A stretch of 24,111 bases of DNA from contig JBHIAV010000045.1 of NCBI GenBank assembly GCA_046758745.1, forward strand, positions 1-24,111, read 5' to 3'. A program made the position numbers and the translations under genes. The notes beneath the pieces were generated by a model. The model worked only from the letters and a program-made list of their open reading frames with translations. It did no database searches and was not told where the DNA came from. Origin of the DNA: Gemmatimonadota bacterium (lineage in GTDB: Bacteria > Gemmatimonadota > Gemmatimonadetes > Palauibacterales > Palauibacteraceae). This document shows, piece by piece, positions 3,064-24,111 of the stretch (its first letter is position 1; each line of letters starts with the position of its first letter).

Positions 3064-3108
3064 CCCGCCGGCAAGGCACCAGCGTGCCGGTGGGCCTTGT
3101 TGGGCGGG
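3064..3108 (+). terminator. Long GC-rich stem-loop 30 nt after the phosphoesterase stop; possible terminator or 3' stabiliser (no U-tract)
   Basis: cccgcc-ggcaaggc-acc pairs with ggt-(gg)-gccttgtt-(g)-ggcggg, about 17 bp including G-U pairs. Confidence 0.3.
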
Positions 3109-3325
3109 GCCGCCGGCGCGACCTTGCCGACCGCAACCGTGAGTGCGGTCACAGCCCGCTCCGCTGCCCCGACGAGTGGGCGCCGGATTTCGGGCGCGTC
3201 GCCGGGGCGCGGGCCGCATCAGCGAAGGCATGAGCCGGACAGGGCTCGGTGCCGGAAAGAAGTCGATCGAGTCGGTCCCGATCAGGAGGAACCCCGGCCA
3301 CCGCACCCGCGTGCAGGAGGAGCGA

Positions 3326-4309: not shown

Positions 4310-4373
4310 GCCGGTCCGACGCGACCCCTTCCCCACGACGGCGTACGGCCCCACTAGCCAGATTCCCCCGCTC

Positions 4374-4402
4374 CTGACACGTTTCATCTATCCAGGTATC
4401 AT
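4374..4402 (+). promoter_or_regulatory. Sigma70-type promoter for the xdh operon
   Basis: CTGACA (4374-4379), 17-nt spacer, TATCAT (4397-4402): 5/6 match at both boxes, in an AT-richer patch about 70 nt upstream of the GTG start. Confidence 0.65.
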
Positions 4403-4471
4403 CTGTTCCAGGAACTCCGCCCCGTTCACCGGAGCGGCGGACGAGGCGTCGGACCGGGAGAAGCACGGAAA

Positions 4472-7159
<2,688 letters not shown>

Positions 7160-7172
7160 GGCCCGGGGAGCA

Positions 7173-9338: not shown

Positions 9339-9344
9339 GGCGAG

Positions 9345-10757: not shown

Positions 10758-10767
10758 GAGAGGCTCG

Positions 10768-12141
10768 ATGAGCGACACTGTCCTGCTCGGAAACGGGGTG
10801 GTGGCCACCGGCGGACCCGATCCGCAGGTGATACCGGAGGGCGCGGTCGCGTGGCACGGGGAGCGGATCGTGGCCGTGGGCCGGGAGGATCAGCTGCTCG
10901 GGGAATGGCGCGACGCGCGGTACCTGGACGCGCGCGACGGCCTGATCCTTCCTGGCCTCGTCAACCTTCACCACCACTTCTACTCCGTGCTGGCGCGCGG
11001 CCTCGACCCCGCGGCGAGCATGAAAGACTTCACGCAGGTACTCGATCGCCTGTGGTGGAGGCTCGACCGCGCGCTCGACATCGAGGCGGTTCGCATCTCG
11101 GCCCTGCTCTCCGTGGCGGAGTGCGTGCGACAGGGCTGCACCACCGTGTTCGATCACCACGCGTCGCCCTCGTGCATCGACGGCAGCTTGGACGCGATCG
11201 CGGAGGCGGTCCAGGCGGGTGGCATCTCCGCCGCCCTGTGCTACGAGGTCACCGACCGCAACGGTCGCGAAGGAGCTGTCGCCGGGATCGAGGAGAACCT
11301 CCGCTTCCTGGCCGAACGCGAGGACGACCGCCGCATCCGCGGTGTGTTCGGGCTCCACGCCAGCTTCACGCTGAGGGACCAGACCCTCGCCGCCGTCGCC
11401 GAACGGCGGCCACCCGACACCGGCTGTCACATCCACGTGGCGGAGGATCCGATCGATGTCGAGGCCTCCATGCAGGCGTTCGGCGCCGGCCCCGTGCAGC
11501 GACTCCAGCGGTTCGGCCTGCTGGACGAGCGCGCGCTTCTGGCCCACGCGATCCACCTGGAGAGAGAAGACTACGAAGCGGCCGCGCGGGCCGGCGCCGT
11601 CCTGATCCACAACCCCGAGTCAAACGCGAACAACGGGGTCGGACGGCTGGACGTCTGCGAGGCGGCGAGCCTCGGATGCCTCGTCGGCTTGGGTACCGAC
11701 GGCATGTCGTCGGCCGTTCTTCGTGCGCTACGCTTCGCCTTCCTCACGCACCGCGGCGCGAGGCGAGATCCCGCCTCGGGCTTCGAGTTCCTGCCCGAGC
11801 TGCTGGCCAACAACGCGCTCGCGGCGCGGCGCTTCTTCCCGGAACCGCTACTGGGGGAACTCGCGCCGGGCGCCCCGGCCGACGTCATCGTCGTCGACGC
11901 GGCGCCTCCCACTCCGGTTTCGCCGGACAACCTTTTCGGGCACCTCGCCTACGGCGTGAGCGAGGCCCCCGTTCGGCACACGGTGGCCTACGGGCGGCTT
12001 CTCCTCGAGGACTTCCGCCACACCACCCTCGACCCCCAGGAGTTGGCGGCCCGGGCCCGGAAGCTCGCGCCGGGGCTCTGGCAACGCTTTCGCTCCCTTG
12101 GCTGGGGCACCAGCTTCCTCGGGAGTGACGCGCGCGGCTAG
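10768..12141 (+). CDS. ssnA: SsnA-like aminohydrolase (amidohydrolase superfamily)
   Basis: GLVNLHHHFYS.LARG, LWWRLDRALD, GCTTVFDHHASP, CYEVTDRNG, FGLHASFTL, HIHVAED, HNPESNANNGVG, LGTDG; GAGAGAGG SD before ATG 10768. Confidence 0.88.
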   Translation: MSDTVLLGNGVVATGGPDPQVIPEGAVAWHGERIVAVGREDQLLGEWRDARYLDARDGLILPGLVNLHHHFYSVLARGLDPAASMKDFTQVLDRLWWRLDRALDIEAVRISALLSVAECVRQGCTTVFDHHASPSCIDGSLDAIAEAVQAGGISAALCYEVTDRNGREGAVAGIEENLRFLAEREDDRRIRGVFGLHASFTLRDQTLAAVAERRPPDTGCHIHVAEDPIDVEASMQAFGAGPVQRLQRFGLLDERALLAHAIHLEREDYEAAARAGAVLIHNPESNANNGVGRLDVCEAASLGCLVGLGTDGMSSAVLRALRFAFLTHRGARRDPASGFEFLPELLANNALAARRFFPEPLLGELAPGAPADVIVVDAAPPTPVSPDNLFGHLAYGVSEAPVRHTVAYGRLLLEDFRHTTLDPQELAARARKLAPGLWQRFRSLGWGTSFLGSDARG

Positions 12142-12210
12142 GTCGGCGGCTGCACGGCCGGCCGCCCCACAGCCACACCAGCGCGTTCAACACAAGGAAG
12201 GAGTGCAGGC

Positions 12211-13701
12211 TTGACCCACGTGGTCGATGAGGAAGTACGCCAGCGAGCCGCGGCGAGGTGCCGGGCACGAGGGATACTGATCCCGACCTTCGCGCAGATG
12301 CGGGATCCGTCCGGTCTGCACCCGACCATCATCGAGGCCCTCGCCCGGGTCGACATGCAGGCGGTGGACCCGCTCAACCTCTTCCGGATCACCTGGCGCA
12401 ACGATCCGGAGTCAGGTCGTTTCGGGGAGGTGAACGCGCTCGAGCTGCCCGCGCAGCTGACGGGCGTCCCGGCCCGCATCGTGGGCCTCGTCGGGAAGTA
12501 CTTTCCCACCGGTGCTCACAAGGTAGGGGCCGCGTTCGGTTGCCTGGTGCCCCGCCTCGTCACCGGTGAGTTCGACCCATCCGTGAACCGCTCGGTGTGG
12601 CCGTCGACGGGGAACTATTGTCGGGGAGGCGCATTCGACAGCGCGCTGCTGGGCTGCCAGGCGGTGGCGATCCTGCCCGAGGAGATGAGTCGGGAGCGCT
12701 TCCGTTGGCTGGAAGAAATCGGGGCGGAGATCATCGAAACCCCCGGCGGCGAGAGCAACGTCAAGGAGATCTTCGACGTCTGCCGGGAGATCCGCCGGAC
12801 CCGGCCCGAGGCAGTGATCTTCAACCAGTTCGACGAGTTCGGCAACTACCTCTGGCATTATGGCGTGACCGGTCCGGCCGTCGAATCGGTCTTTCGCCGA
12901 ATCGCCGGTCCGCGAGACCGCTGCGCCGCCTGGGTGGGAGCCACCGGATCCGCAGGTACCCTCGCGGCGGGCGATCACCTCAAGCGACAATTCCCCGGCT
13001 GCCGCATCGCCGCCGCCGAGGCCCTCCAGTGTCCCACGCTGCTGATGGCGGGATTCGGCGACCACCGCATCGAGGGCATCGGGGACAAGCACATTCCGTG
13101 GATCCACAACGTGCGCAACACGGATGTGGTGACGGCCATCGACGACGAGGCGACGTTGCGTCTCCTCCGCCTGTTCAACGAGCCGGCCGGGCGGCCGCTG
13201 CTGGTAGATCGTGGCGTCCCCGAGGAGGTCGTCGCCCGTCTCCCACTGCTCGGCATCTCGAGCATCTGCAACGTGCTCGCCGCGATCAAGACGGCCCGCT
13301 ACCTGGAGCTCGACGAGCACGACGTCGTCTTCACCTCGTTCACCGACTCGGTGGAGCTCTATCGGACCCGCCTCGAGGAGCTCCGGACGGAACGCGGCCC
13401 TTACTCCGCCAGGTCAGCCGAGGTCGACTTCGAGCGGTACCTCCAGGGCGTCACCACGGACAACCTCCGGGAACTTCGCTACACGGACCGAAAAGCGATC
13501 CACAACCTCAAGTATTTCACTTGGGTGGAGCAACAGGGGAAGGCCGTGGAGGAGCTGAACGCTCTGTGGAGCCCCACCTTCTGGGAAGATCTCGCCGGAG
13601 AGCTCCCCGCGTGGGACGAAGCCATCGAGGCGTTCAACCGCGAGAGCGGCGCTTGGGACGCGGTACGGCATCGGGCCGCACAGGGGGCGAACGAGCAATG
13701 A
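12211..13701 (+). CDS. Extended fold-type II PLP-dependent enzyme (cysteine synthase/CBS-like), function unknown
   Basis: AAGGAAGGAG SD before TTG 12211; PTGAHKVG (PLP Lys), PSTGNY, TGSAGT phosphate loop, HRIEGIG, GISS; long N- and C-terminal extensions (496 aa). Confidence 0.85.
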   Translation: MTHVVDEEVRQRAAARCRARGILIPTFAQMRDPSGLHPTIIEALARVDMQAVDPLNLFRITWRNDPESGRFGEVNALELPAQLTGVPARIVGLVGKYFPTGAHKVGAAFGCLVPRLVTGEFDPSVNRSVWPSTGNYCRGGAFDSALLGCQAVAILPEEMSRERFRWLEEIGAEIIETPGGESNVKEIFDVCREIRRTRPEAVIFNQFDEFGNYLWHYGVTGPAVESVFRRIAGPRDRCAAWVGATGSAGTLAAGDHLKRQFPGCRIAAAEALQCPTLLMAGFGDHRIEGIGDKHIPWIHNVRNTDVVTAIDDEATLRLLRLFNEPAGRPLLVDRGVPEEVVARLPLLGISSICNVLAAIKTARYLELDEHDVVFTSFTDSVELYRTRLEELRTERGPYSARSAEVDFERYLQGVTTDNLRELRYTDRKAIHNLKYFTWVEQQGKAVEELNALWSPTFWEDLAGELPAWDEAIEAFNRESGAWDAVRHRAAQGANEQ

Positions 13702-14915
13702 GCGATGGTGCGGGACGCGCGGCTCTGGAGGACGCGCGACGCCACGAGGACGAGATCGTGCGTTTCCTGCGCGAGATGATCGCCATTCCGGCGGAGAGCC
13801 GTCGCGAGCGAGAGCGCTGCGAGCGGGTGCGGCGGGAGTACGAGAGCCTCGGGTTCGACGAGGTCTTCTATGACCGGCTCGGCAACGTAGTGGCGCGCCT
13901 CGGGGATGGTCCGCTCACCATACTGATGGACGGTCACATCGACTGCGTCGGCGTCGGCGACCCCAAAGCCTGGGATCACGACCCCTATGAAGGGAAGCTC
14001 GAGGACGGGAAGGTGTGGGGCCGCGGTGCAGTGGACGAGCTGCCCGCGATCGCCTGCATGGCCTACGGCGCCAAGCTGGCGCGCGATCGCGGCCTGTGGG
14101 GCGAGGTCACGCTGTACGTCACCGCCTCCGTGATGGAGGAGGAGTGCGACGGCTATTGCCTTCTGCACCTGATTGAGAAGGAGGGGATCCGGCCCCACGT
14201 CGTGGTGATCGGGGAGCCTACGGACCTCGGAGTCTGCCGGGGCCACCGCGGTCGGGTGGAGGCCACGATCTCGACGACGGGAGTATCGTCGCACGCTGCG
14301 CACCCCGAGCGCGGTGACAACGCGCTGTACAAGCTGGCCCCGATCATCTCGGATATCGAGGCTCTGAACGAACGGCTGCCCTCAGACGACTTCCTGGGCA
14401 AGGGAACCGTCGTGGTCTCCTTCGTAGAGTGCACCTCGCCCTCCCTCAACGCCGTTCCCGACAGCGGCCGCATTTACATCGACCGCCGGCTGACGGCCGG
14501 CGAGACGGTCGAGAGCGCGCTGGCGGAGCTACGGTTGCTTCCCCACCTGGGCGATGCCGAGGTGGAGCTCCTCGCGTACGACGAGGTGAGCTGGCGGGGC
14601 GAGCGCGCCCGGCAGGAGAAATACTTTCCGACCTGGGTGCTGCCGGAGACGCACGCCCTGGTTCAGGGCGTCACAGCCGCTGCAGGCGCCGTGCTCGGCG
14701 CGCCGCCCGAGGTCTCCCGGTGGGCGTTCTCCACCAACGGGGTCGCGACCATGGGTCGTCACGGCATACCGACCGTGGGATTCGCGCCCGGCAAGGAAGA
14801 GCTCTCGCACACCACCGGTGAGTGGGTCGCCGTCGAGGATCTGGTGCGAGCCACGGCCGTGTACAGCCTGATCCCGGACTCCCTAGCCGGACGCAAGGGA
14901 GAGCTCATGGGATGA
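13698..14915 (+). CDS. ygeY: YgeY-family M20 metallo-hydrolase (ureido/carbamoyl hydrolase)
   Basis: ATGA overlap with the upstream stop; DGHID, GRGAVD, VMEEECDG, EPT, RGHRGR, H...PERGDNA, FLGKGT, NAVPD, DRRLTAGE, YFPTW, WAFSTNGV, GFAPGKEELSH. The ORF-track start at 12597 is an overextension. Confidence 0.9.
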   Translation: MSDGAGRAALEDARRHEDEIVRFLREMIAIPAESRRERERCERVRREYESLGFDEVFYDRLGNVVARLGDGPLTILMDGHIDCVGVGDPKAWDHDPYEGKLEDGKVWGRGAVDELPAIACMAYGAKLARDRGLWGEVTLYVTASVMEEECDGYCLLHLIEKEGIRPHVVVIGEPTDLGVCRGHRGRVEATISTTGVSSHAAHPERGDNALYKLAPIISDIEALNERLPSDDFLGKGTVVVSFVECTSPSLNAVPDSGRIYIDRRLTAGETVESALAELRLLPHLGDAEVELLAYDEVSWRGERARQEKYFPTWVLPETHALVQGVTAAAGAVLGAPPEVSRWAFSTNGVATMGRHGIPTVGFAPGKEELSHTTGEWVAVEDLVRATAVYSLIPDSLAGRKGELMG

Positions 14916-15886
14916 GCGTCGACCTGAGGGGACGGGATCTCATCACGACGCAGGACTGGACGATGGAGGAGCTGGAGACGTTGCTCCAGCTCGCGGACCG
15001 GCTCAAGAAGGCTAGAGCGGCCGGAGAGCGGACGCCGCTCCTGCCGGCCAAGACGTTGTACATGATCTTCTTCGATGCCTCGACCCGCACCCGGAACTCA
15101 TTCGAGACGGGGATCACGCAGCTCGGGGGGCACGGGATCTACCTGTCGCCGGACCATATGCAGATCAGCCATGGCGAGAGCGTCCGCGATACGGCCAAGG
15201 TTCTTTCCCGGTACGGCGAAGGCATCGCCATCCGGCACTGCACGTATGGAGAGGGAAACGCCTACCTGCGTGAAATGGCCGAGCATGCCAGCATACCGGT
15301 CCTCAACATGCAGTGCGACGTCTACCACCCGTGCCAGATCCTGGCCGATTACATGACCATCCGCGAGCGATTCGGCGACACGCGCGGGCTCAAGCTGGGC
15401 GTCGCCTGGACCAGCGCGCCCAAGTACGTGCGGCCGCTCTCCGTTCCGCAGAGCCTCATCCTCATGATGCCCCGTTTCGGCATGGACGTGACGCTCGCCT
15501 ACCCGCCGGAGTTCCGCCTCATGCCGGAGATCGAGGAGCAGGCGCAGGCGAACGCGGACCAGGCCGGAGCGCGCTTCGAAACAACGCAGCAGTTCGAGTA
15601 CGCGTTCGAGGACTCCGATGTAGTGATCCCCAAGTCGTGGGGCCCGCTGGTGACCACGCAGGACGTCGAGGAAGGGCTATCGCTCATCGAGCGGTATCCG
15701 GACTGGCGGTGCGACGAGGAACGCATGGCGCTCGGAAAGGAGCACCTCATCTACATGCACCCGCTTCCCGCCGATCGGGGGCGTGAGGTGACGGATGGGG
15801 TGATCGACGGGCCGCAGTCCGCGGTATTCGACGAAGCCGAGAATCGGCTCCACGTGCAGAAGGCCCTCATGGCCCTCACGATGTGA
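14912..15886 (+). CDS. Carbamoyltransferase (ATCase/OTCase superfamily), compact YgeW-like
   Basis: ATGA overlap at 14912-14915; STRTR, HPCQ, HPLP; YgeW-like segments QISHGE, GNAYLRE, NMQCDVYHP, W..AP.Y..PLSVPQ, RFGMDVTLA.P, PKSW; OTCase-like tail EVTDGVIDGPQSAVFDEAENRLH. Confidence 0.88.
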   Translation: MSVDLRGRDLITTQDWTMEELETLLQLADRLKKARAAGERTPLLPAKTLYMIFFDASTRTRNSFETGITQLGGHGIYLSPDHMQISHGESVRDTAKVLSRYGEGIAIRHCTYGEGNAYLREMAEHASIPVLNMQCDVYHPCQILADYMTIRERFGDTRGLKLGVAWTSAPKYVRPLSVPQSLILMMPRFGMDVTLAYPPEFRLMPEIEEQAQANADQAGARFETTQQFEYAFEDSDVVIPKSWGPLVTTQDVEEGLSLIERYPDWRCDEERMALGKEHLIYMHPLPADRGREVTDGVIDGPQSAVFDEAENRLHVQKALMALTM

Positions 15887-17121
15887 GCAGCTTCCGGCTT
15901 CGCTGTATCGAGTGCGGGAGGGAATACGCCGAGCAGGGGACGCGGCTGGTGTGCGACGACTGCTCCGCTCTACAGGAGCCCGGCGCACCGACGCGGGGCG
16001 TGCTGGAGGTGCGGCTGGACGACCTGCCCGCGGTCTGGCCCTCCGCGGCCCCCTCGAGCGCGGGGTTCCTGACGGCTTTTCTGCCGCTCGCGTCCCCCGG
16101 CTCGCTGCCCCCGCTGGCAGTCGGAGGAACCCCGTTGCTGGACGTTCCCGAGCTCCGGAAAGCGCTCGATCTCCCGCGTCTCACCCTGAAGGACGACACC
16201 CGAAACCCGAGTGGCTCCACCAAGGACCGGGCATCCCTTCTGGTGGTGGCGAAGGCCCGGGAGTACGGCTACGAGACGGTCGCGGCCGCTTCGACCGGCA
16301 ACGCAGCGGCCGCTCTGGCCGCCGTGGGCGCCGCCGCCGGGATCCGCACCGTCGTGTTCGTCCCCGCCTTTGCCCCCGAGGCGAAGCTCGTGCAGATCCT
16401 CAGCTACGGCGCCATGGTCCTTCCGGTGGAGGGAAGCTACGACGAGGCCTTCGAGCTCTGCCTGGCGGCCTGCGATGCGTTCGAATGGTACAACCGCAAC
16501 ACCGCCCTGAATCCGTTCACCATCGAAGGAAAGAAGACGGCCGCGCTCGAGATCGCCGCTGCCATGACTCCGGAATCTCCGGACGCCGTCATCGTGCCGA
16601 CGGGTGACGGGGTCATCCTGGCCGGAGTGGCCAAGGGGTTCGCGGACCTGGTGCTCGCCGGTCTGATCGAACGAGCTCCCCGCCTCATCGCCGTGCAGCC
16701 GGAAGGATCGGGTGCCATCGTCCGGGCGCTTCGCGATGGGGCCGATACGATCACGCCGGTGCCCGACGCAGTCAGCATTGCCGACAGCCTCACCGTTCAG
16801 GCTCCCCGCAACGCCATCCTGTGCCTCAGGCGAATCAGGGAGTCGGGGGGCGGGGGGGTGGCCGTGCCCGACGAAGCGATCCTGGAAGCCGCCCTCTACC
16901 TGGCGCGGCACACGGGAGTGTTCGCGGAGCCGGCCGGCGCGGCATCGCTCGCCGGTCTGCACGCGGCGCTCGCCGAGGGCCTGGTGGAGCGGAACGAGAG
17001 GATCGTCCTTCTCGTTACCGGCACCGGCCTGAAGGACGTTCCGGCGGCAGCGCGCGCCGTCCGCCGTCCGGAACCGATCCGCCCGGAGCTCGATGCCGTG
17101 GGGGAGCGGCTTGGTCTGTGA
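15883..17121 (+). CDS. Threonine synthase-like PLP enzyme (fold type II) with N-terminal Zn ribbon
   Basis: GTGA overlap; CIECG...CDDC; GGTPL, NPSGSTKDR (PLP Lys), ASTGN, NPFTIEGKKT, VPTGDG, SIADSL, EPAGA, TGTGLKD. Confidence 0.88.
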   Translation: MSSFRLRCIECGREYAEQGTRLVCDDCSALQEPGAPTRGVLEVRLDDLPAVWPSAAPSSAGFLTAFLPLASPGSLPPLAVGGTPLLDVPELRKALDLPRLTLKDDTRNPSGSTKDRASLLVVAKAREYGYETVAAASTGNAAAALAAVGAAAGIRTVVFVPAFAPEAKLVQILSYGAMVLPVEGSYDEAFELCLAACDAFEWYNRNTALNPFTIEGKKTAALEIAAAMTPESPDAVIVPTGDGVILAGVAKGFADLVLAGLIERAPRLIAVQPEGSGAIVRALRDGADTITPVPDAVSIADSLTVQAPRNAILCLRRIRESGGGGVAVPDEAILEAALYLARHTGVFAEPAGAASLAGLHAALAEGLVERNERIVLLVTGTGLKDVPAAARAVRRPEPIRPELDAVGERLGL

Positions 17122-17295: not shown

Positions 17296-18132
17296 TCAGC
17301 CCACGGCCCGGCCTGCCGGCGCCCGCGGTGCGGGCGAGTGCTCTCGCCTGTACCAGCGGAAGAAGATGGCCGTGATGACGGACCAGTGGACGACCATCCC
17401 TCCGACCTTCATCACCACGCCGGCCGTCTGATGGTCCCCGCGCGCCGTGATCCCGGCGACCCGCGGCGCGAGCTCGTAGACCCCGTAGAGGGGGTAGTCA
17501 CCGAATACGAGGAAGAGAGAGATCGCCCCCATGATGATGGTGTTGCCGAACAGGTATCCCATCCTGGCCAGATCATGAAAGCGCGGCCGCTCGGGGACCG
17601 GGCACACGATCGGCCACCACAGGACCAGCCCTCCGGTGAACCACAGGGCGTCGATGGCGAAGGAGCCCGGCTGGGAGACCATCAGGTGATCCACCACCGA
17701 GGGGAGGTGCGTGAGCGCCAGAATGGCGTTGAAGGCCACAAGGGCCGCCACGGGCTGCGTCAGGAGGCGGACGAAGCGGATCCACCGCTTCCGGGCGGCC
17801 AGTCGCGCGAAGGCATTCGGCGGAAGCCCCGCGAGGAGGAGCGGCGGAACGACGAGCCCGACGAGCAGGAACTGAACCATGTGCAGGCTGACCAAGTAGC
17901 CGCCGCCCAGCGCCCCGAGAGGCCAGTCGAGCGCCACCCACAGAAGCAGTGCGCCGAGACGGAAGAGGCCGCGTCTGCGGCGGCCGGCGGCCCCGTCGGT
18001 CCCCCTGGCCTCTCTATCGAGCGTTTGATGGGCGAGGATGAGCAGCGCGACGACCGCCCACACGCCGGGGTAGGGCCGCCACACCCACTCCCACGCCCCC
18101 CCCTGAGCGGAGCACCACCAGCGAACGCTCAA
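17296..18132 (-). CDS. ctaG: Cytochrome c oxidase assembly factor CtaG (Caa3_CtaG family)
   Basis: TTG start with GGGAGAG SD; multi-TM protein with ALDWPLG.LG.GYLVSLHMVQFLL..LVVPPLLL.G, TH.P, WWP, PLY..Y, D.QTAGVVMK.GG. Confidence 0.88.
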   Translation of the reverse strand: MSVRWWCSAQGGAWEWVWRPYPGVWAVVALLILAHQTLDREARGTDGAAGRRRRGLFRLGALLLWVALDWPLGALGGGYLVSLHMVQFLLVGLVVPPLLLAGLPPNAFARLAARKRWIRFVRLLTQPVAALVAFNAILALTHLPSVVDHLMVSQPGSFAIDALWFTGGLVLWWPIVCPVPERPRFHDLARMGYLFGNTIIMGAISLFLVFGDYPLYGVYELAPRVAGITARGDHQTAGVVMKVGGMVVHWSVITAIFFRWYRREHSPAPRAPAGRAVG

Positions 18133-18187
18133 CAGCCGCTCTCCCGAGCGGAGCGCTGCCAGCGAACGCGCAACTCACCCGACCCCC

Positions 18188-18422
18188 TCACGGCGCGGAG
18201 AGGTTCGATCCCGCCAGGATCGGGAGATCGTGCGCCCAGTCCCTCTGGCGCGTGCCGAACGTGTAGGCGACCCGATGGCCGCCGTCGCGCGTGAACGCGA
18301 TGAGGCGCGCGCCGCTCCGAGCCGGAGCCGCACCCCGCCAGCGCGATGAGAGCGCACGCCGGCAGCGCCACAGAGGCGGCCGCACCCATCTGCCCTGTTC
18401 GGCGGCACACGACTCGCTGCAT
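18188..18422 (-). pseudogene. Probable SCO-family copper chaperone remnant with a large out-of-frame internal deletion
   Basis: A purine-rich SD and ATG 18422 give a lipoprotein signal (...ACALIALAGCGSGSE). From about 18313 a different frame reads GARLIAFTRDGGHRVAYTFGTRQRDWAHDLPIL..., which resembles a SCO C-terminus, with stop at 18188. It lies directly upstream of ctaG. No CxxxC or His ligands remain. Confidence 0.6.
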
Positions 18423-18647
18423 GACCCCCTCTTCCCCTCTCCCTAAGGAGATCGGCCCAAATCGGTCCTGAAGGATAGCGCCTATCCGAGGGCGGGAGCG
18501 AGTCTCGTCGGTCCGATTGCAGGGCCCCCCGGCGGCTTCTTGAGCCTTGTCTCCTCGCTGGCCGGTCGATAGGGTAGGGACGGAATGAGGCCGGCCCGCG
18601 GCTTTCCTGCGGCGCCGGCTTTTTCGGCGGTGGACAGGGAAGATTTC

Positions 18648-20294
18648 ATGCAAGCAGAGCGAGGCCGCCCGCCCCGCTGTCGCCGCGCATCCTGCGAGTC
18701 GTCGGATCTAAGGGGAGGAAATGGGCACTGCGGTCGGGCCGGTGGGGGGCGGCGGTCGGGCCTTCGCCCTTCTGCGGCGGGATTCTCCCTGCTCGCCTCT
18801 CTCTTCCTTCTCCTCGGCCTCGTGAGGGCGACGTTCGGACAATCCTCCGAGGTCCCGCAGGAAGTCCCCGCCGCTCTTCCCGCGCCGACGCCTTCGCCCA
18901 AGCTCCCGCCTTCGCTCCGGATGCCGCCTCCAGCCCAGCTCCCGGCTTCGCTCGATCCGGCGCCTTCGGCCCAGCCTTCGCGTCCGTCCGGGGCGGCGCG
19001 TCCGCCCAGGGGTGCGCCGGCCGACCCGGAAGCCGATGCCGCGGTGCAGGAAGACTCGATCGTCGTGATCGAGCGGGGGACCCCCGCCGTCAACGGCTGG
19101 GACGTGGCGGAGCTCCCGTTCAGGCTCGTCACCCTCCCCATCCTGATCATCGGGAACGGCAGCAAGCTTGCATTCGGCGGCAAGGGCTACCTGATCCCGA
19201 ACGTCACCCACCTGTTCGGTCAGATCCAGGCGAGAGGCGTCCACCCCTTGATCCACCGGCAGGGAGCAAGCTCCAGCATTGGGGGTGGCCTTCTTCTCGG
19301 CGTCCCGCCCACGCGCGAAGGCCCGTGGGCCCACGTCCTCGGTGGCGCCACGATCAAGGAGTACTGGCTGCTGGGCGCCCGCCTCGGGTACGGCTCGGAG
19401 TACCCGGAGCCGCGCCCGCGGCTCGGGATACGGCGCGGCGGCCCCTTCACGGTCCAGGGGTACGGATTCCGGGCGCACCGGGCACAGGACAAGTTCTACG
19501 GCCCGGGCCGGGACAGCCGGAACGAGAACCGCTCCGACTACGACCGAGATCAGTACGAGGCGGGAGCGGTGGTCATCCTGCGTCCCCTCCCCAACTCGGA
19601 ACTCCGGTTCTTCGCCCGGTGGACGCAGGACGATATCGGGGCGGGGGACGCCGATGATCTGCCGGACGTCGATTCCACCTTCGCCGCCAGCGAGATTCCG
19701 GGCTTCGGGGAGCGCTGGCGGTACGTCTCGTTCGGGACCACGGTGGGGTGGCGCGTGGGGCGCCTGCACACGATGCAGAGGCACGACCGGTGGCTCGAGG
19801 CGAGCTACACGTGGAACGACAGCCGGAGCGACGGGGCCGCCGACTACGGGCGCCTGGAGCTGTCGGCCGGGATCGAGCTCCCGTTCGACCGGAAGCGGGA
19901 GAGCCTTGCTTTCGCGCTTCGCTACGTGGCGCTCCGGCCGAGCGGCGAAGGGGCGATTCCCTTCTACCGCCTGGCATCCCTGGGGGGCAGCCACAGCCTG
20001 GCCTCCTACCACACGTATCGATTCGCCGATCAGGAATCCATCCTCGGTCAGGCCGAGTATCGATACCGTGTGTGGAGCGAGGTGCGTGACGAGTTCTGGC
20101 TCGACGGGATCCTCTTTCTGTACGAGGGGATGGTCGCCGAGAGCCTGAGCGACGAGTTCCGCTTCGAGCGACTGAAGGAGAGCTACGGCTTCGGTCTCGC
20201 CTTCATAACGCCGGAGTCGGAGGTCGCCCGGATCACCTTCAACTGGGGAGACGACGGGTTCCTGGGTCGTTTCTCCTTCCTGTTCGGCCTGTGA
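18648..20294 (+). CDS. Omp85/BamA/TamA-like outer-membrane beta-barrel protein without obvious POTRA domains (start uncertain: 18585 or 18648)
   Basis: Signal-like h-region FSLLASLFLLLGLVRATFG; Pro/Ala-rich linker; amphipathic strands; FYGPG..S, IPFY.L.SLGG....Y...RF.D...L.QAEYRY, SYGFGL and terminal FSFLFGL are typical of surface-antigen barrels. Confidence 0.72.
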   Translation: MQAERGRPPRCRRASCESSDLRGGNGHCGRAGGGRRSGLRPSAAGFSLLASLFLLLGLVRATFGQSSEVPQEVPAALPAPTPSPKLPPSLRMPPPAQLPASLDPAPSAQPSRPSGAARPPRGAPADPEADAAVQEDSIVVIERGTPAVNGWDVAELPFRLVTLPILIIGNGSKLAFGGKGYLIPNVTHLFGQIQARGVHPLIHRQGASSSIGGGLLLGVPPTREGPWAHVLGGATIKEYWLLGARLGYGSEYPEPRPRLGIRRGGPFTVQGYGFRAHRAQDKFYGPGRDSRNENRSDYDRDQYEAGAVVILRPLPNSELRFFARWTQDDIGAGDADDLPDVDSTFAASEIPGFGERWRYVSFGTTVGWRVGRLHTMQRHDRWLEASYTWNDSRSDGAADYGRLELSAGIELPFDRKRESLAFALRYVALRPSGEGAIPFYRLASLGGSHSLASYHTYRFADQESILGQAEYRYRVWSEVRDEFWLDGILFLYEGMVAESLSDEFRFERLKESYGFGLAFITPESEVARITFNWGDDGFLGRFSFLFGL

Positions 20295-22111
20295 TGCGGC
20301 GAGCGCTCGGTTCCGGCCCCGTCGCCAGGTGGGGGGAGAGTCGCCTCTCGCTCGCCGGCCCGGCCCGGATCGCGGGCCCCCTTCCGAAGCGACTCAAGCC
20401 GCTCGCGGCCCTGCTCATGGCGACCGCGCTGGCCGGGTGCTCGTCGAACCGCGTCGTGGTGCGCCAGGGCTCGAGTCCGGCGCCGGAGCCCCGGCCGCTC
20501 CCCGACGCCCTGGCGGAGAGGGACCCGAGTGTCCTCGGCGACTTCCTCGAGCACTCCGTCCTCCGACCCGGCCTTCACACCTTCAACCTGCCGTTCACGC
20601 TGAAGCGCTGGGTGGGCTACCGCACCGAGGCGTACAACGTGACGGCCGAGGACGACGTGTCCGACCGGGCGTGGTTCGTCCACCGCAATGCCCGTCACCG
20701 GATGTCCCCGGAGGCGGTGGCCAGCGGCCCCATGCCCGGCGGAGCGCCCGACACGAGCGAAGCCCTGACGATCATCCGCGCTAAGGCCGTCGGGATCACG
20801 CCGGGCTTCACGATCCGGGACCGGAACGGAGCGGTCTTCCAGGTGAAGTTCGACCCGCCCGGCTACCCGGAGATGTCGAGCGCCGCCGAGGTGATCAGCG
20901 GCCGCCTCTTCCATGCAGCCGGGTACCACGTGCCCGCGACCTACATCGTGGCCCTCGATCCGTTGAAGCTCGAGGTGGCGCCCGACGTCACCTACCTCGA
21001 CAAGCTCGGACGGGAACATCCCTTTACCCAGCAACGGGTGAACGAGCTCCTGGGCCGGGTGGCGCGGCTCCCCGACGGCCGCGTCCGGGCGGTGGCCAGC
21101 AGGTTTCTGGAGGGCACGAACATCGGCCCCTTCTCCTTCGACGGTACGCGGCGCGACGATCCGGCCGACACGATCCCCCACCAGCACCGCCGGGAGCTGA
21201 GGGGCCTGTACGTCATGGCCGCGTGGCTCAACCACGTCGATATCCGCCAGCACAACACCCTGGACATGGTGGTGGAAGAGAACGGGCGCCGCTTCGTCCG
21301 GCACCATCTGATCGACTTCGGCGCCTCACTCGGAAGCGGCAGCATCCAGCCCAACTTCCCGCGGGACGGCGTGGAGCACGACGTGGACCTGACCGACATC
21401 TTCGCCCGCATCCTCACCGCGAACATCTACTCGACTCGATGGGAGCGGTACGACGGCGGGGTCAAATATCCATCCGTGGGGTTCTACACGTCGGATCTCT
21501 TCGACCCGGGGAGCTGGACGGCGGACTATCCGAACCCGGCCTTCTACGAACGGACGGCGCGCGACGGCTACTGGGGCGCCAAGCTCGTGGGGAGCTTCAG
21601 CGAAGAGCAGATCCGGGCCGCCGTGGCGGCCGGTCAGCTGAGCGATCCGGCCGCGGCGGAGTACCTGACGGGCGAGATCCTCAAGCGGCAGGAGATGACC
21701 CTGCGCTACTGGTTCCTGCGCGCCACACCGCTCGAGGAGCTCGCCGTCGCGGGCGGGCCCGACGCACCCTCCCTCTCCTTCCGTGATCTGGCGGCAGCGC
21801 ACGGCTACGTGCGCGCCGGTGAACGCGCGTACGAGGTCCGCTTCGAGTTCCCGGCCGTCCACCTGAAGTCCAGGGAAACCGCTCGACTGCGGCTGGATGC
21901 GAACGGGAGGGGGAGGCTCGAGCTCCCCTTCCCCGCTGGAGCCGACCGGGAGTTCTGGGACGAGCTCCGCCGGCGTCCGGCCCGCAAGCGCATCGCGAAG
22001 CTCGAGGTCAAGGCGATCCCCGGGCCGGGCGACCCCGGGGCGCGCTCGGTTCGCATCTACCTCCTGCCGAGCCGCAAGACCGGATACCGAATCGTCGGGC
22101 GCGCGTATTAG
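20291..22111 (+). CDS. Lipoprotein with atypical protein-kinase-like catalytic domain (HipA/PI3K/CotH-like motif set)
   Basis: GTGATG overlap with the upstream stop; lipobox ALAGC (Cys codon 20438); K186 in FQVKFD, E200 in SAAEV, D317-x4-N322 in WLNHVDIRQHN, D342-F-G in LIDFGASLG. Confidence 0.7.
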   Translation: MMRRALGSGPVARWGESRLSLAGPARIAGPLPKRLKPLAALLMATALAGCSSNRVVVRQGSSPAPEPRPLPDALAERDPSVLGDFLEHSVLRPGLHTFNLPFTLKRWVGYRTEAYNVTAEDDVSDRAWFVHRNARHRMSPEAVASGPMPGGAPDTSEALTIIRAKAVGITPGFTIRDRNGAVFQVKFDPPGYPEMSSAAEVISGRLFHAAGYHVPATYIVALDPLKLEVAPDVTYLDKLGREHPFTQQRVNELLGRVARLPDGRVRAVASRFLEGTNIGPFSFDGTRRDDPADTIPHQHRRELRGLYVMAAWLNHVDIRQHNTLDMVVEENGRRFVRHHLIDFGASLGSGSIQPNFPRDGVEHDVDLTDIFARILTANIYSTRWERYDGGVKYPSVGFYTSDLFDPGSWTADYPNPAFYERTARDGYWGAKLVGSFSEEQIRAAVAAGQLSDPAAAEYLTGEILKRQEMTLRYWFLRATPLEELAVAGGPDAPSLSFRDLAAAHGYVRAGERAYEVRFEFPAVHLKSRETARLRLDANGRGRLELPFPAGADREFWDELRRRPARKRIAKLEVKAIPGPGDPGARSVRIYLLPSRKTGYRIVGRAY

Positions 22112-22217
22112 CTGCGGCACCGCGGGGGCGACCGGCCGTCCCGCCCCGGCAGGCGCGAAGCGACGGCCCGCTCCCTCCGGTCGCCCACCTGCGAGTCAGG
22201 GCCCGTGACCGGCCCCT

Positions 22218-23795
22218 TTACGCGGCGCGCCGGTCCTCGCCGACGCAGGGCGCCCGACCCGCCTCAACCAGCCGCCTGTACTCCCTGCCGATGAGAGCGG
22301 CGGTCACCAGCGCGAGCGCGACGATCGCCACGTTCACCACCGCGAAGTGGCGCGTTCCCAACGCCAGATAGGTGGTCCCCACGAAGACCAGACCGGCCGA
22401 TGACACGTCTCCCGCCCGAACGAAGAAGGTGTCGATCGCTTGCTTGGCCTTGTACTTCTGCTCGCGCGTGCAGGGGAGGAAGATCACGTTCCGCACCGTG
22501 TTCTGCAGGGAATAGTCCGTGGCGTTCTCCACCGTCTTCGCCCAGCGCACGTAGCCGAGGACCGGCAGGGATGCGATGAGGAGGTTGGAGCCGAGGGCGA
22601 TCAGCGGCAGGATGAGGAGCGAGGCGCGCATGCCCAGATACTTGATCACACGCGAGACGAGGAAGAGCTGGATCAGGAGCCCGAGCGTGTTCACCCCGCC
22701 GTAAAAGCCCGCCAAGAAGCTCCCGATGTACTCCTTTTCGGAACCGGCCATGAGCGCTCCCCTGGATACGGCTTGCGCGGCGGTGTTCTCCACCAGCTTG
22801 TCGAGGATATACCCTCCGTTGGTGTTCACCCAGGTCAGAAAGAGCATCAGCAGACCGATGAGAAGGAGGTACCGGCAACGCAGTACCGTCCGGTAGGGGT
22901 TCTCGCGGCTCCCCCCCAGCTCGACCTCCTCGAGGCTCGCCTCCAGCGTCGCCTTCCGGCGGGCCTCCGGCTCGGGGGGCGCCTCGCCCTTCTCGAGGGC
23001 CCTTCGCACCTCGGCCAGCGAGATCTCGCCGGTGATCGCCTTCCGCACGTCGTCGATCCGCATCTCGCCGGTGATCGCCTTACGCACCTCGGCGAGCGGG
23101 ATCTCCTGCGAGGCGGCGGGCATCGCCCCGCTGGTGAGCACGTTCGGGAGGTCAGCCTCCGTCCGCCGCCGCTCGCGGGCGTCCACGTAGTTCGTGACCC
23201 ACAGGCTGGCGACGAGGATGCCCCCGGCGACCAGCATCGGCGGATAAACGCCCGCCAGGTCGATGACGCCCCCCGTGCTGAAGCTCCCGGCCACGGCGCC
23301 CAGCGACGCGCCGACGGCCACGATCGGGAAGAGCCGCTCCCCTTCCTCGTTGCTGTAGACGTCGTTGGCGAACGCCCAGAGCTGGGCCACCACCATCACG
23401 TTGAAGATCCCCGTCCACAGAAAGAACGCGACCCCCTGGACGAGCAGCGAGACGGGGAGCTGCCCGATGAAGAAGAAGACGACGAGGCAGGCTGCGAAGA
23501 AGAACGTCACCACGTTGATCAGCCGGCGGCGCGGCATCCGATTGGCCAGCGCTCCGTAGGCGGGAACGACGAAGAGGAGGAGCAGGACGAGCCCGGCCGA
23601 CAGGTAGCTCTTCAGCTCCGCGCCGCCGCCCGTGATAATGAGGGAGTCCCGCACCGGCTTGATGAAGGAATACGCCGCGAGGATGAGGAAGAGGTTGATG
23701 GCGAGAAGGAGCGCCGTGGCCCCCTCGCCCGACCGCACATCGGCGAACAGGCGAAGGAAGCGGTCGATGGGGCTCAGGCGCCGCACTCTGTGCAC
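22218..23795 (-). CDS. NTT/TLC (Npt1/Npt2, ATP/ADP translocase-like) MFS nucleotide transporter
   Basis: AAGAGAGGAG SD before GTG 23795; about 12 TM; AYSFIKPVRDSL, FFLW.GIFN......WAFANDVY..EEGERLFP, ENATDYSLQNT, REQKYKAKQAIDTFFVRAGD. Confidence 0.85.
   Translation of the reverse strand: MHRVRRLSPIDRFLRLFADVRSGEGATALLLAINLFLILAAYSFIKPVRDSLIITGGGAELKSYLSAGLVLLLLFVVPAYGALANRMPRRRLINVVTFFFAACLVVFFFIGQLPVSLLVQGVAFFLWTGIFNVMVVAQLWAFANDVYSNEEGERLFPIVAVGASLGAVAGSFSTGGVIDLAGVYPPMLVAGGILVASLWVTNYVDARERRRTEADLPNVLTSGAMPAASQEIPLAEVRKAITGEMRIDDVRKAITGEISLAEVRRALEKGEAPPEPEARRKATLEASLEEVELGGSRENPYRTVLRCRYLLLIGLLMLFLTWVNTNGGYILDKLVENTAAQAVSRGALMAGSEKEYIGSFLAGFYGGVNTLGLLIQLFLVSRVIKYLGMRASLLILPLIALGSNLLIASLPVLGYVRWAKTVENATDYSLQNTVRNVIFLPCTREQKYKAKQAIDTFFVRAGDVSSAGLVFVGTTYLALGTRHFAVVNVAIVALALVTAALIGREYRRLVEAGRAPCVGEDRRAA
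22989..23105 (-). repeat. 39-bp / 13-aa triple repeat in the central loop of the transporter
   Basis: EIPLAEVRKAITG / EMRIDDVRKAITG / EISLAEVRRALEK; the 20-mer atctcgccggtgatcgcctt occurs exactly at 23023 and 23062. Confidence 0.85.
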
Positions 23796-23981
23796 GAGGG
23801 CTCCTCTCTTCTCGACCCTCAGTCGTGCCTTCCGCGGGCCACCTAGCGAAGCAGCCGCTCCCGATCCGCCGTCGCCCGCGCCGACGGGCGCGTTTCGCCA
23901 TCAGCACGGCGATGAGCAGAACGGCGCACAGCACGACCCCGACGCGCCGCGGGCGAAGCAGCGCTCGCCACGGAAGAGGCA

Positions 23982-23998
23982 TGCAGACTTTTTGCCAG
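23982..23998 (-). promoter_or_regulatory. Candidate sigma54 (-24/-12) promoter for the NTT gene
   Basis: The minus strand reads CTGGCAAAAAGTCTGCA: TGGCA...TGCA with exact GG-N10-GC spacing, about 185 nt upstream of GTG 23795. Confidence 0.45.
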
Positions 23999-24111
23999 GG
24001 GAGCGGAAGCCGGCCGTCCGCAGGATACGGGTACGGGCGCTCGCCCGCGACAGGGAGGCGAGTCGACGGCGTAGGCAGGAGCGCCGTTCCGGCGGAGGCG
24101 GGGGCGATCGC

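Follow-up and report, generated by a model that had tools for sequence, protein, structure and literature searches.

Overlapping genes for a predicted POTRA-less Omp85 barrel and an exported kinase-fold lipoprotein, often linked to NTT-family carrier genes: a candidate module for envelope phosphorylation

Genes of the locus

The window (the whole 24,111-nt stretch of DNA that was analysed) contains three neighbouring genes and a spacer that are considered here:

18585..20294 (alternative start 18648), + strand: barrel gene, predicted POTRA-less Omp85-superfamily outer-membrane barrel
20291..22111, + strand: kinase-like lipoprotein gene, predicted atypical protein-kinase-like fold with a C-terminal Ig/FN3-like beta-sandwich
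22112..22217, no strand: convergent spacer, 106 nt between both stop codons
22218..23795, - strand: TLC/NTT-family carrier gene (P0003), inner-membrane, MFS-type, short type without HEAT repeats

A first-pass annotation had described a barrel gene overlapping a lipoprotein gene, with a transporter gene convergent to them, and all three genes are present at the places given there. The GTGATG overlap can be read directly from the letters 20291-20296, where the TGA stop codon of the barrel gene (20292-20294) overlaps a start at GTG by 3 nt and a start at ATG 20294 by 1 nt. Upstream of Met43 the kinase gene has no in-frame ATG, GTG or TTG besides this overlapping start, so the coupled start is the sole workable one, and ATG 20294, overlapping the barrel stop codon, is the likely start as judged from the sequence. 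The start of the barrel gene is uncertain and is either ATG 18585 or ATG 18648, the in-frame ATG at residue 22. The 106-nt convergent gap to the carrier gene (22112-22217) is as previously described, and a consensus scan of it found no terminator-like site. The contrast in codon-position GC of the three genes (0.84-0.91 at position 3 and 0.44-0.54 at position 2), together with the many homologues found for each, shows that they are real genes and not open frames arising by chance at high GC. A purine/pyrimidine-catabolism-like cluster precedes the module in the window.

The encoded proteins

The barrel protein is predicted to comprise a signal peptide, a Pro-rich disordered linker and two helices followed by 16 beta-strands. 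Its AlphaFold2 model (53-row alignment, mean pLDDT 77.5, barrel blocks mostly >90) has a barrel of the usual 16 strands, including an L6 loop, and a Foldseek search against the PDB matched it to BamA and TamA barrels at E ~1e-10 (120 matches at E<=0.001), including barrel-only TamA (8us4, TM 0.75 by target) and BamA-RcsF (6t1w). As modelled, the protein therefore has the 16-stranded C-terminal barrel of BamA/TamA type expected of an Omp85 member, and its earlier description as Omp85-like is borne out by predicted structure and fold search although the Pfam score is below the cut-off (PF01103, 19.6 bits against 24). The score for NF047779 (34.6 bits) is likewise below the cut-off, while an orthologous barrel (L054) passes that of PF01103 with 36.8 bits. 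Within the barrel family the lid-lock residues are common, with the L6 Arg found in 46 of 53 members and the beta-13 Asp in 44 of 53. The window barrel has Ala in place of the Arg and Tyr in place of the Asp (L-A-S-Y; F-L-Y-E-G) and so departs from the Omp85 motifs (L/V)RG(F/Y) in loop 6 and FxDxG in beta-13. No Pfam match to a POTRA domain was found in the protein, only the disordered Pro-rich stretch and two helices preceding the barrel, which places it with the noNterm (POTRA-less) class of Omp85 proteins (Heinz and Lithgow 2014, PMC4104836).

The product of the second gene carries both the lipoprotein signal and the kinase-like motifs previously attributed to it. K/R-rich and hydrophobic stretches lead into a lipobox (K-R-L-K-P-L-A-A-L-L-M-A-T-A-L-A-G-C, with LAG before Cys50) that conforms to the pattern [LVI][ASTVI][GAS]C after an n-region and h-region, and a Pro-rich linker of ~30 residues would tether the protein in this lineage. 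Among the 83 closest relatives, at least 90% keep the Cys of the lipobox column; in a wider sample 43 of 106 do, the remainder having Sec-type signals. A signal h-region is present in 104 of the 106, and the predicted location is extracytoplasmic, as had been supposed.

K186, D317, N322 and D342 are invariant across 83 aligned sequences, in a catalytic loop of the form H-x-D-x-(K/R)-x-x-N followed by DFG, and the set is intact in 103 of 107 relatives, with or without a TLC gene nearby. In the lipoprotein model (pLDDT 91, pTM 0.89) these positions fit beta-3, the catalytic loop and DFG, and would thus provide the beta-3 Lys, loop Asp/Asn and DFG Asp typical of the kinase superfamily. The model also has a predicted bilobal kinase fold. 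Its top matches in the PDB are all atypical kinases (probability 0.96-1.00, at low TM scores of 0.26 by query and 0.51 by target), the best being CtkA (3akl, E 1.8e-4), Fam20C (4kqa, E 2.1e-4) and Hydra Fam20 (5xom, E 6e-4), with actin-fragmin kinase and PI4KII-alpha further matches. Two of the best, CtkA and Fam20C, are secreted or secretory-pathway enzymes. Together, the conserved residues and the modelled fold suggest that the protein may be a phosphotransferase.

Family assignment by sequence alone is weak for two of the three genes (barrel and kinase), the TLC gene passing its cut-off. None of the kinase Pfam models passes the cut-off for the lipoprotein: HipA_2 (PF20613) reaches 17.6 bits against 27, PF06702 (Fam20C) and PF00454 (PI3_PI4_kinase) gave no profile match, and in the Atlas these three families appear solely as low-score leads (0.77-0.80). 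A profile of the 83 kinase-family sequences found no PDB chains at E<=1. The kinase family comprises 4109 representative clusters at E<=1e-3; the >3900 homologues of the lipoprotein are every one annotated as 'hypothetical' and none has a Pfam domain, and the named homologues come from at least seven phyla. In long relatives (~1150 aa) the catalytic residues are degenerate, as P0126 shows. Fusions of the kinase to NTT/TLC or Omp85-like barrel genes, which the first-pass annotation had thought worth looking for, were not found among the homologues. In one natural fusion (P0243), a kinase domain with a signal peptide is linked to a PAP2 phosphatase domain that is membrane-bound and has a PSGH motif. 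PSGH is a PAP2 signature and the PAP2 active site faces the periplasm, and this fusion speaks for the module proposed below.

When the mature lipoprotein (50-606) was co-folded with residues 145-548 of the barrel, counted from the start at 18648, the score was 0.45 (runs 0.51, 0.03 and 0.45; best of three controls 0.00), the runs sharing at least 46% of contacts with partner pLDDT of at least 82. In calibration, 58 of 80 solved complexes and 2 of 110 mismatched pairs attained the mark, counts that hold roughly since our own alignments were used, and passing at a score <=0.60 were just 7 of those 80 complexes but both of the passing mismatches. For the docking of lipoprotein on barrel suggested earlier, the run at 0.03 is unfavourable, and taken together the models weakly suggest that the two proteins may be in physical complex.

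The window carrier passes PF03219 (46.6 bits against a cut-off of 21; MFS_1, 37.9 bits) and fails TIGR00769 (NTP/NDP exchange transporter) by a wide margin (38.5 bits against 387.2). It matches the solved NTT chains 9j3n (E 4.9e-5) and 9j3j weakly, over stretches that cover the W-x-F-A-N-(D/E) and P...EQK-x-K-x-K-x-AID...R-x-G motifs, and R49, W140, K451, D455 and R460 are kept in 86-94% of 58 kinase-linked carriers. Orthologues have 41-58% identity and many lie elsewhere directly downstream of a kinase gene. By these profile and motif matches the carrier is a distant relative of ATP/ADP translocases; it is so far from characterised NTTs in its TIGR00769 and PDB scores that its substrate could differ.

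Conservation of gene linkage

Conserved linkage had been set beforehand as a test of the module, and the outcome was positive. Where at least 600 nt of upstream sequence is present, the kinase gene is immediately preceded by a barrel gene on its own strand in 23 of 24 loci from genomes of the phylum and in 62 of 63 from metagenomes, and a barrel gene is upstream in all four Bryobacterales loci (two of four under a strict gap rule). A TLC-like gene is found within 5 kb of the barrel-kinase pair in 48 loci out of 109, a sample in which short flanks are common. If long flanks are required, it is found in 10 of 12 loci from metagenomes and in 7 of 16 from phylum genomes. This is a strong enrichment over the chance expectation of ~1% by our own rough arithmetic (~3 such genes per 3.1-Mb genome). 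Three carrier subtypes are linked to the kinase family, and when the kinases are clustered at 50% identity, 16 of the 25 clusters include a member that has a TLC gene within 5 kb. In 28 loci the TLC gene is a direct neighbour (<400 nt) of the pair: it follows on the same strand in 20, precedes on the same strand in five, is upstream and divergent in three and convergent in one, with one of the 28 falling in two classes. The convergent case is the window alone, and in this orientation co-transcription of the carrier gene with the pair is impossible.

Across 300 genomes of the phylum, 18 of the 24 that have the kinase and 20 of the 276 others contain an orthologue of the window carrier (E<1e-40), the 20 including one unpublished genome (G057). 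In the window's own family the orthologue occurs in five of six kinase-positive and none of 17 kinase-negative genomes. All five of these relatives have the carrier gene on a different contig from the kinase gene, and the pattern of co-occurrence fits a shared function even with the genes unlinked. A 97% complete genome that has both barrel and kinase (G060) gave no match to PF03219, and four Bryobacterales genomes have TLC genes located away from the barrel-kinase pair. The link of carrier to pair is frequent, not obligate. The interpretation offered at first pass is thus supported in part: linkage and export signals speak for it, and a carrier that is obligatory or fused does not form part of the picture.

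A proposed envelope phosphorylation module

In the textbook view the periplasm is free of ATP, and the machines of the envelope are explained by their working without it. We propose, with a probability of about 0.5, that the barrel and exported kinase form a widespread envelope module that often includes an ATP/ADP-exchanging carrier for periplasmic phosphorylation. Its invariable core would be the gene for a POTRA-less Omp85 barrel translationally coupled to that for a Sec-exported kinase-fold protein. At the outer membrane the two proteins would most likely be joined in a complex, in which the kinase domain is docked at the barrel, or handled by it, from the periplasm. A frequent third partner would be an inner-membrane carrier of the NTT/TLC type, or several of them. 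These carriers would most likely swap cytoplasmic ATP for periplasmic ADP and so provide the phosphate donor for the exported kinase. In a free-living cell that respires, the membrane potential would favour such exchange, which moves one net negative charge outward. The kinase would have to share the exported ATP with competing phosphatases and nucleotidases of the periplasm. It may act on an envelope component, which would be either a protein (at Ser/Thr) or else a glycan or lipid head group. The more specific statement that free-living diderms of many phyla export ATP through NTT-family carriers, and that this powers a Sec-exported kinase at a POTRA-less barrel, is put forward tentatively, at somewhat less than even odds.

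Of the alternatives, the one that survives best, although we consider it unlikely, accepts the pair as real and has the TLC carriers move other cargo (candidates being NAD or some other nucleotide or cofactor, nucleotide sugars and cyclic nucleotides) or serve as regulated partners of neighbouring membrane Ser/Thr and histidine kinases; as part of the same reading, the kinase-fold protein would use a different donor or carry out another nucleotide-dependent transfer, for example AMPylation. The window carrier is a distant TLC member, an orthologue occurs in the 20 genomes without the kinase, and HEAT-repeat carriers, membrane Ser/Thr kinases (~6 TM + Pkinase) and histidine kinases recur in the clusters. 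Moreover, characterised NTTs carry NAD and other NTPs too. A report of NAD transport by Chlamydia Npt1 is cited in the reference list of PMC5381601. However, the hallmark motifs and charged residues of NTTs are conserved, the catalytic loop and DFG match the ones found in ATP-dependent phosphotransferases, and the presence of three TLC subtypes beside one kinase family points to a property common to the carrier family.

It is distinctly unlikely that the TLC gene of the window is a functionally unrelated neighbour of the pair, a relic or there by chance, the unit in the window being the pair alone with, for example, a barrel that displays the lipoprotein on the surface. The convergent orientation unique among adjacent cases and the separate contigs in five of five family relatives with both genes would be expected if this were so, and in Leptospira noNterm Omp85 genes precede unrelated lipoprotein genes, for which a role in lipoprotein export is discussed in the available part of PMC11358297. 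On the other hand, many other lineages have a carrier gene of the same orthologous type immediately downstream and in the same orientation, and the carrier orthologue follows the kinase in the family's genomes, present in most that have it and absent from all that do not.

Import by nucleotide scavenging, in which the barrel admits nucleotides, the kinase-fold protein binds or re-phosphorylates them and the TLC carrier takes them up as in intracellular parasites, is very unlikely. Characterised NTTs all import nucleotides, according to the available text of PMC5381601. The window module comes after its nucleotide-catabolism-like cluster, and in four Bryobacterales loci the module follows pyrR-, pyrB- and pyrC-like genes, but such neighbours are not conserved in other loci. 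Omp85 barrels are not known to act as solute channels, and the window barrel is modelled with the usual strands and loop. Furthermore, re-phosphorylation would itself require periplasmic ATP, and fully conserved catalytic residues favour catalysis over mere binding.

The least probable alternative, that the kinase-fold protein has no catalytic activity, or works with a donor other than a nucleotide, and has a structural or adhesive outer-membrane role, could draw on the degenerate long relatives, on the C-terminal Ig/FN3-like domain and on the one known periplasmic phosphorylation, that by LpxT, which uses undecaprenyl pyrophosphate and not ATP (PMC2229476, as far as its available text goes), but the K/D/N/D set is intact in nearly all relatives including the window copy, a strictness unusual for a pseudoenzyme.

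If the proposed phosphorylation module is correct, a widespread pairing of kinase and carrier would challenge the view of an ATP-free periplasm and be an exception to the rule of no ATP-dependent chemistry there. A large unexplained set of NTT and NTT-HEAT genes in free-living bacteria would also gain a testable function, a role would be suggested for one group of POTRA-less Omp85 barrels, and the kinases would stand as a new family without a Pfam model. No description of a module of barrel, kinase lipoprotein and NTT was found in literature searches, and its parts are best compared with separate known systems.

The NTT/TLC antiporters (TC 2.A.12: Rickettsia Tlc1, Chlamydia Npt1, plastid NTT1) share PF03219 and motifs with the window carrier, which differs in scoring far below the TIGR00769 cut-off and in a net direction that we propose to be outward. 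Uncharacterised NTT and NTT-HEAT proteins of free-living bacteria were described by Major, Embley and Williams (2017, PMC5381601), and the HEAT-fused carriers of sister loci fit their NTT-HEAT clade; the available part of that paper makes no mention of a kinase or Omp85 neighbour of NTT genes. As presented in the available part of PMC11358297, Leptospira LIC12252/12254/12258 resemble the window in having a POTRA-less 16-strand Omp85 barrel with a lipoprotein gene immediately after it, but their partners are DUF1566 or Big-domain lipoproteins rather than a kinase-fold protein. LptD-LptE and BamA-RcsF likewise combine an outer-membrane barrel with a dedicated lipoprotein. In these complexes the lipoprotein is small, acts as a plug or sensor and has no enzyme fold, and the interface in the window is weakly predicted.

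Among kinases, the HipA-like atypical Ser/Thr enzymes are related to the window protein by a weak HipA_2 profile match below the cut-off. Helicobacter pylori CtkA, the top structural match, is likewise exported. Unlike the window kinase, it lacks a lipobox, a C-terminal Ig-like domain and any known partner of barrel or carrier type, and it acts in host cells, where ATP is available. The closest parallel in logic is that of eukaryotic Fam20C (Golgi casein kinase) and Fam20B, in which an extracytosolic atypical kinase is combined with a carrier that brings ATP, an ER/Golgi ATP/ADP exchanger supplying the kinases of the secretory pathway. The window kinase has no family-level sequence match to Fam20 (no PF06702) and a TM of ~0.2-0.3, and the proposed module differs in its carrier of NTT/MFS type, its outer-membrane barrel partner and its bacterial host. 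If it functions as proposed, it would be a bacterial counterpart of this eukaryotic kinase system.

Gene content of the window

The window is an entire contig (C45) of 24,111 bases, with a G+C content of about 69%, from a genome that is 87% complete and 3.08 Mb in size, and its genes have their closest named homologues in Gemmatimonadota. The module comprises three genes.

18585-20294, + strand: barrel open reading frame; an in-frame ATG at 18648, the start chosen in the first-pass annotation, is residue 22
20291-22111, + strand: kinase-fold gene, with a GTG or ATG start within GTGATG (20291-20296)
22218-23795, - strand: TLC-family carrier (protein P0003), convergent to the kinase-fold gene with a gap of 106 nt

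The kinase-fold start overlaps the TGA stop of the barrel gene within GTGATG, and open reading frame and sequence checks bore out every detail of the genes, overlap and convergent gap as first described. The G+C content of all three genes is 0.84-0.91 at codon position 3 and 0.44-0.54 at position 2, which argues that all three are real. No match to promoter or terminator consensus sequences in 18000-24111 rose above the shuffled expectation.

The barrel has no in-frame start between 18648 and its signal peptide, and as annotated an unusually long stretch precedes that peptide. At 18700-18760 a strong Shine-Dalgarno-like sequence (AAGGGGAGGA) is followed by an ATG at 18721, out of frame in the barrel 5' region and ahead of a G-run. 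A frameshift near this G-run, at about 18740, would tidy the signal peptide. The contigs of runs X1-X4 contain no insertion or deletion there (X3 and X4 give partial cover), so a frameshift finds no support in them.

The remaining features of the window are as follows.

66-656, - strand: PEBP-family protein
1739-3034, + strand: protein with a PKD domain and a calcineurin-like metallophosphoesterase domain, 17 kb from the module, to which no link was made
4472-7159, + strand: molybdopterin xanthine-dehydrogenase-family protein with 2Fe-2S domains
7173-9338, + strand: 4Fe-4S protein
9345-10757 and 10768-12141, + strand: two amidohydrolases
12211-13701, + strand: PLP enzyme (PALP)
12597-14915, + strand: M20 peptidase, in the C-terminal part of the open reading frame
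14822-15886, + strand: OTCase-family protein
15883-17121, + strand: second PLP enzyme
17296-18132, - strand: caa3-type cytochrome oxidase assembly factor CtaG
18129-18653, - strand: 174-residue open reading frame with no Pfam match, which would overlap the earliest possible start of the barrel

The long same-strand cluster at 4472-17121 (+) has the appearance of purine/pyrimidine or amino-acid catabolism, and we take it to resemble the ygeW-ygeX-ygeY-hyuA region of E. coli. Within it the reading frames at 12211-13701 and 12597-14915 share about 1.1 kb, each in its own frame; the M20 peptidase probably starts near 13700, or else the frame is at fault.

An exported kinase-fold protein and its upstream barrel

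The kinase-fold protein begins with a K/R-rich segment and a hydrophobic one, followed by an L-A-G-C lipobox containing Cys50. A word-indexed search found more than 3,900 homologues, all unnamed or annotated as hypothetical and none with a precomputed Pfam domain, while a profile search of 1.84 billion representatives gave 4,109 clusters at E<=1e-3 and 1,492 at E<=1e-30. Named homologues come from Gemmatimonadota, Krumholzibacteria, Calditrichota, Zixiibacteriota, Marinimicrobia and Poribacteria; the family is likewise present in Bryobacterales, and the Atlas shows clusters from Myxococcota and Acidobacteriota. In an alignment of 83 sequences K186, D317, N322 and D342 are invariant, and 103 of 107 relatives at the fetched loci, whose metagenome part is the best 80 of 421, retain the full K/D/N/D set. 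The catalytic loop, H-x-D-x-(K/R)-x-x-N, resembles those of Ser/Thr kinases.

The AlphaFold2 model (pLDDT 91, pTM 0.89) places the conserved residues on beta-3, at the DFG turn and in the catalytic loop that follows a long helix; residues 481-605 form a beta-sandwich. All of the top fold matches in the PDB are atypical kinases, namely H. pylori CtkA and the Golgi casein kinase Fam20C, which are the nearest structures, Hydra Fam20, actin-fragmin kinase, PI4KII-alpha and haspin. The matches have E values of 1.8e-4 and weaker and low TM scores. These relatives came from fold comparison only: the family profile has no match at E<=1 among PDB sequences, and no kinase Pfam model passes its cut-off on the window protein. 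As modelled, the fold class is clear and the protein fits no known family. PADLOC returned no match for any of the three module proteins, and so nothing points to a known defence system.

Export signals bear directly on the extracytoplasmic location originally proposed for this protein, which they uphold across the family. A signal-peptide hydrophobic region is present in 104 of the 106 relatives with an evaluable N-terminus (metagenome part again the best 80 of 421), whereas only 43 of the 106 have the lipobox Cys; in the rest a Sec-type signal precedes a conserved K-F-Y-x-D-D-P stretch. Export is therefore the conserved property and lipidation a clade feature. In non-lipoprotein relatives (for example at loci L001, L112 and L119) K-F-Y-x-D-D-P-(L/V) directly follows the signal peptide, and the matching stretch of the window lipoprotein is E-R-D-P-S-V. 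This motif may serve for docking to the barrel.

A search for longer proteins yielded six of about 1,150 residues (P0126-P0131) with a kinase-like N-terminal half. P0126, the one aligned, is degenerate at the Lys, catalytic Asp and DFG positions, and the four scanned (P0126, P0127, P0128 and P0130) gave no Pfam domains; by their sequences the six are possibly pseudokinase offshoots. P0264, a GT4 glycosyltransferase joined to a kinase domain, was set aside as perhaps a merged gene call, its N-terminal part not matching the barrel profile. The first-pass annotation had raised fusion of the kinase to Omp85-like or NTT genes, and none was seen in this search, which can argue only weakly that they are absent. 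In one representative, P0243, a long disordered stretch links a kinase domain, which has a signal peptide and lacks the C-terminal beta-sandwich, to a membrane PAP2 phosphatase domain with a PSGH motif. The active sites of PAP2 enzymes face the periplasm. This fusion, a single case, would suit an enzyme that works in the periplasm and is a hint of lipid-linked phosphate chemistry.

Profile matches of the barrel fall below cut-off (PF01103, 19.6 bits versus 24; NF047779, 34.6 versus 200). Its AlphaFold2 model, made with a 53-row alignment (A2) built from the upstream genes of related loci, begins with a signal-peptide helix and a disordered Pro-rich stretch, and continues with two moderate-confidence helices and a 16-strand barrel, most blocks of which have pLDDT >=90. 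Foldseek matched it to the BamA and TamA barrels with E about 1e-10 (TM 0.75 by target for the barrel-only TamA chain 8us4). The protein lacks POTRA domains, which makes it a noNterm-type Omp85 protein. The residues of the Omp85 lid-lock are largely kept in the family (loop-6 Arg in 46 of 53, beta-13 Asp in 44 of 53), and the window barrel has lost both, with Ala for the Arg and Tyr for the Asp.

19990-20130: lost lid-lock site, barrel residues 450-496 numbered from the 18648 start

Linkage of barrel and kinase genes (the pair) was assessed in 24 phylum loci from 301 genomes (27 genomes matched besides the window, 24 of them strongly), four Bryobacterales loci and the best 80 of 421 confirmed metagenome loci. 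A single-protein scan of genome contigs gave five loci, one of which, a match of 60 residues from Salimicrobium, is spurious. A crude GC3-based gene caller often chose the opposite-strand shadow of the barrel gene, and the counts accordingly rest on tblastn maps. The presence of an Omp85-like neighbour, a check named at the outset, proved nearly universal: the barrel lies directly upstream on the same strand at 23 of 24 phylum loci and at 62 of the 63 metagenome loci (from the best 80 of 421) whose upstream sequence spans 600 nt or more. By the strict gap rule it is upstream at two of the four Bryobacterales loci, and at the other two it lies 600-900 nt upstream. Two loci depart from the upstream arrangement: L059, which is a divergent second copy, and L077.

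Co-folding of the barrel with the mature lipoprotein, also suggested at the outset, scored 0.45 (runs 0.51, 0.03 and 0.45), the best of three controls scoring 0.00; contact agreement was at least 46% and partner pLDDT at least 82. Among calibration cases, 58 of 80 solved complexes and 2 of 110 mismatched pairs attained the mark, passes at <=0.60 comprising only 7 of the 80 complexes and both mismatches; these counts hold only roughly here since custom alignments were used. The predicted complex has weak support from co-folding, with one of three runs at 0.03. Given the strong prior from gene coupling, an outer-membrane complex of barrel and kinase is likely, and we put the probability that the two form a module at about 0.9.

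Linkage of the pair to carriers and other neighbours

P0003 passes PF03219 (46.6 bits versus 21) and falls far under TIGR00769 (38.5 versus 387.2). It weakly matches the solved NTT chains 9j3n (E 4.9e-5) and 9j3j (E 0.043), over stretches that include W-x-F-A-N-(D/E) and P...EQK-x-K-x-K-x-AID...R-x-G, and each of R49, W140, K451, D455 and R460 is retained by 86-94% of the 58 carriers linked to a kinase. A central loop at residues of about 233-270 (window about 22980-23100, -) contains a tandem nine-residue repeat, with two units of (E/D)VRKAITGE ahead of EVRRALEKGE; the loop is variable, and orthologue matches break into two pieces at it. The linked carriers are of the P0003 type (about 440-500 residues, 41-58% identical), a HEAT-repeat type of about 750 residues and a type of about 900-950 residues, often in tandem.

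The first-pass annotation had made gene linkage the test of a carrier's involvement, and the result is favourable. At 48 of 109 loci (metagenome part the best 80 of 421) the pair has a TLC-like gene no more than 5 kb away, compared with a chance of about 1% by simple arithmetic from the three TLC-like genes in the 3.08 Mb of the window's genome. At 28 loci the TLC-like gene is adjacent (<400 nt), being downstream on the same strand in 20, upstream on the same strand in five and upstream divergent in three, with one locus counted twice; the window alone among the 28 has a convergent arrangement. Among metagenome loci from the best 80 of 421, a carrier is directly downstream, always on the same strand, at 17 of the 66 with at least 600 nt of downstream sequence and within 5 kb at 10 of 12 with long flanks, the latter figure being 7 of 16 for phylum loci and 0 of 4 for Bryobacterales. 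With kinases clustered at 50% identity, a member of 16 of 25 clusters has a TLC gene within 5 kb and one of 9 of 25 has it adjacent.

At the level of whole genomes, P0003 orthologues (E<1e-40) occur in 18 of 24 kinase-positive versus 20 of 276 other genomes (one of the 20, G057, is unpublished), and within the window's own family in 5 of 6 kinase-positive versus 0 of 17 kinase-negative genomes, all five orthologues being on another contig than the kinase. In G060, a 97% complete genome with the pair, no PF03219 match was found, and Bryobacterales genomes have TLC genes only elsewhere, away from the pair. In the window the carrier and kinase genes, on opposite strands, cannot share a transcript. 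Together these observations make the carrier a frequent and not an obligate partner, and we regard a functional tie between the pair and such carriers as probable.

Other recurrent neighbours are membrane Ser/Thr kinases (about six TM helices and a Pkinase domain), histidine kinases, HtrA-like proteases, NhaA, Lon protease, UbiE-type methyltransferases and class-V aminotransferases, none near the frequency of the barrel or carrier. Only the Lon, membrane Ser/Thr kinase, histidine kinase, methyltransferase and aminotransferase genes occur at six or more loci, and no conserved phosphatase cluster was found among neighbours at that frequency. At L040, L047, L050-L054 and L056 paired membrane Ser/Thr kinases flank the pair, several with Ku and LigD next. 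In the Bryobacterales loci (L001-L004, about 2300-5400) pyrR-, pyrB- and pyrC-like genes are directly upstream of the pair on the same strand; the likeness of pyrB and pyrC to the OTCase-like and amidohydrolase genes of the window looks like paralogue similarity and was dropped as shared synteny.

Proposed mechanism and known systems

The analysis shows the genes with their folds, export signals, intact catalytic residues and conserved linkage. Beyond this, we propose that the barrel and the exported kinase would form an outer-membrane complex, that NTT-type carriers would swap cytoplasmic ATP for periplasmic ADP, and that the kinase would then phosphorylate an envelope target. ATP/ADP exchange carries one net negative charge outward, and an inside-negative membrane potential favours it. 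Besides protein Ser/Thr, the substrate may be a glycan or lipid, as the Fam20B-like and PI4K-like structural matches and the PAP2 fusion would allow. The original idea, that an NTT exports ATP to fuel an extracytoplasmic kinase beside an Omp85-like barrel, holds in its gene linkage; its biochemistry we infer. We give the whole chain even odds, and ATP export as such is a tentative suggestion, somewhat short of that.

P0003 belongs to the NTT family, as do members from free-living bacteria that are of unknown function; the available part of one account describes links of NTTs to HEAT and cNBD domains and none to a kinase or Omp85 protein (PMC5381601). The barrel is of the noNterm Omp85 class, and Leptospira barrels of that class, equally unexplained in the portion of the source available, also precede lipoprotein genes (PMC11358297). 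The one periplasmic phosphorylation found in print, by LpxT, avoids ATP altogether according to the accessible part of its description (PMC2229476). As a system the module is unlike any characterised one, and no published description of it was found in the limited collection of literature searched. Its nearest analogue in logic, a kinase with an ATP carrier, is Fam20C of the eukaryotic secretory pathway, where the ER/Golgi has an ATP carrier that supplies that compartment.
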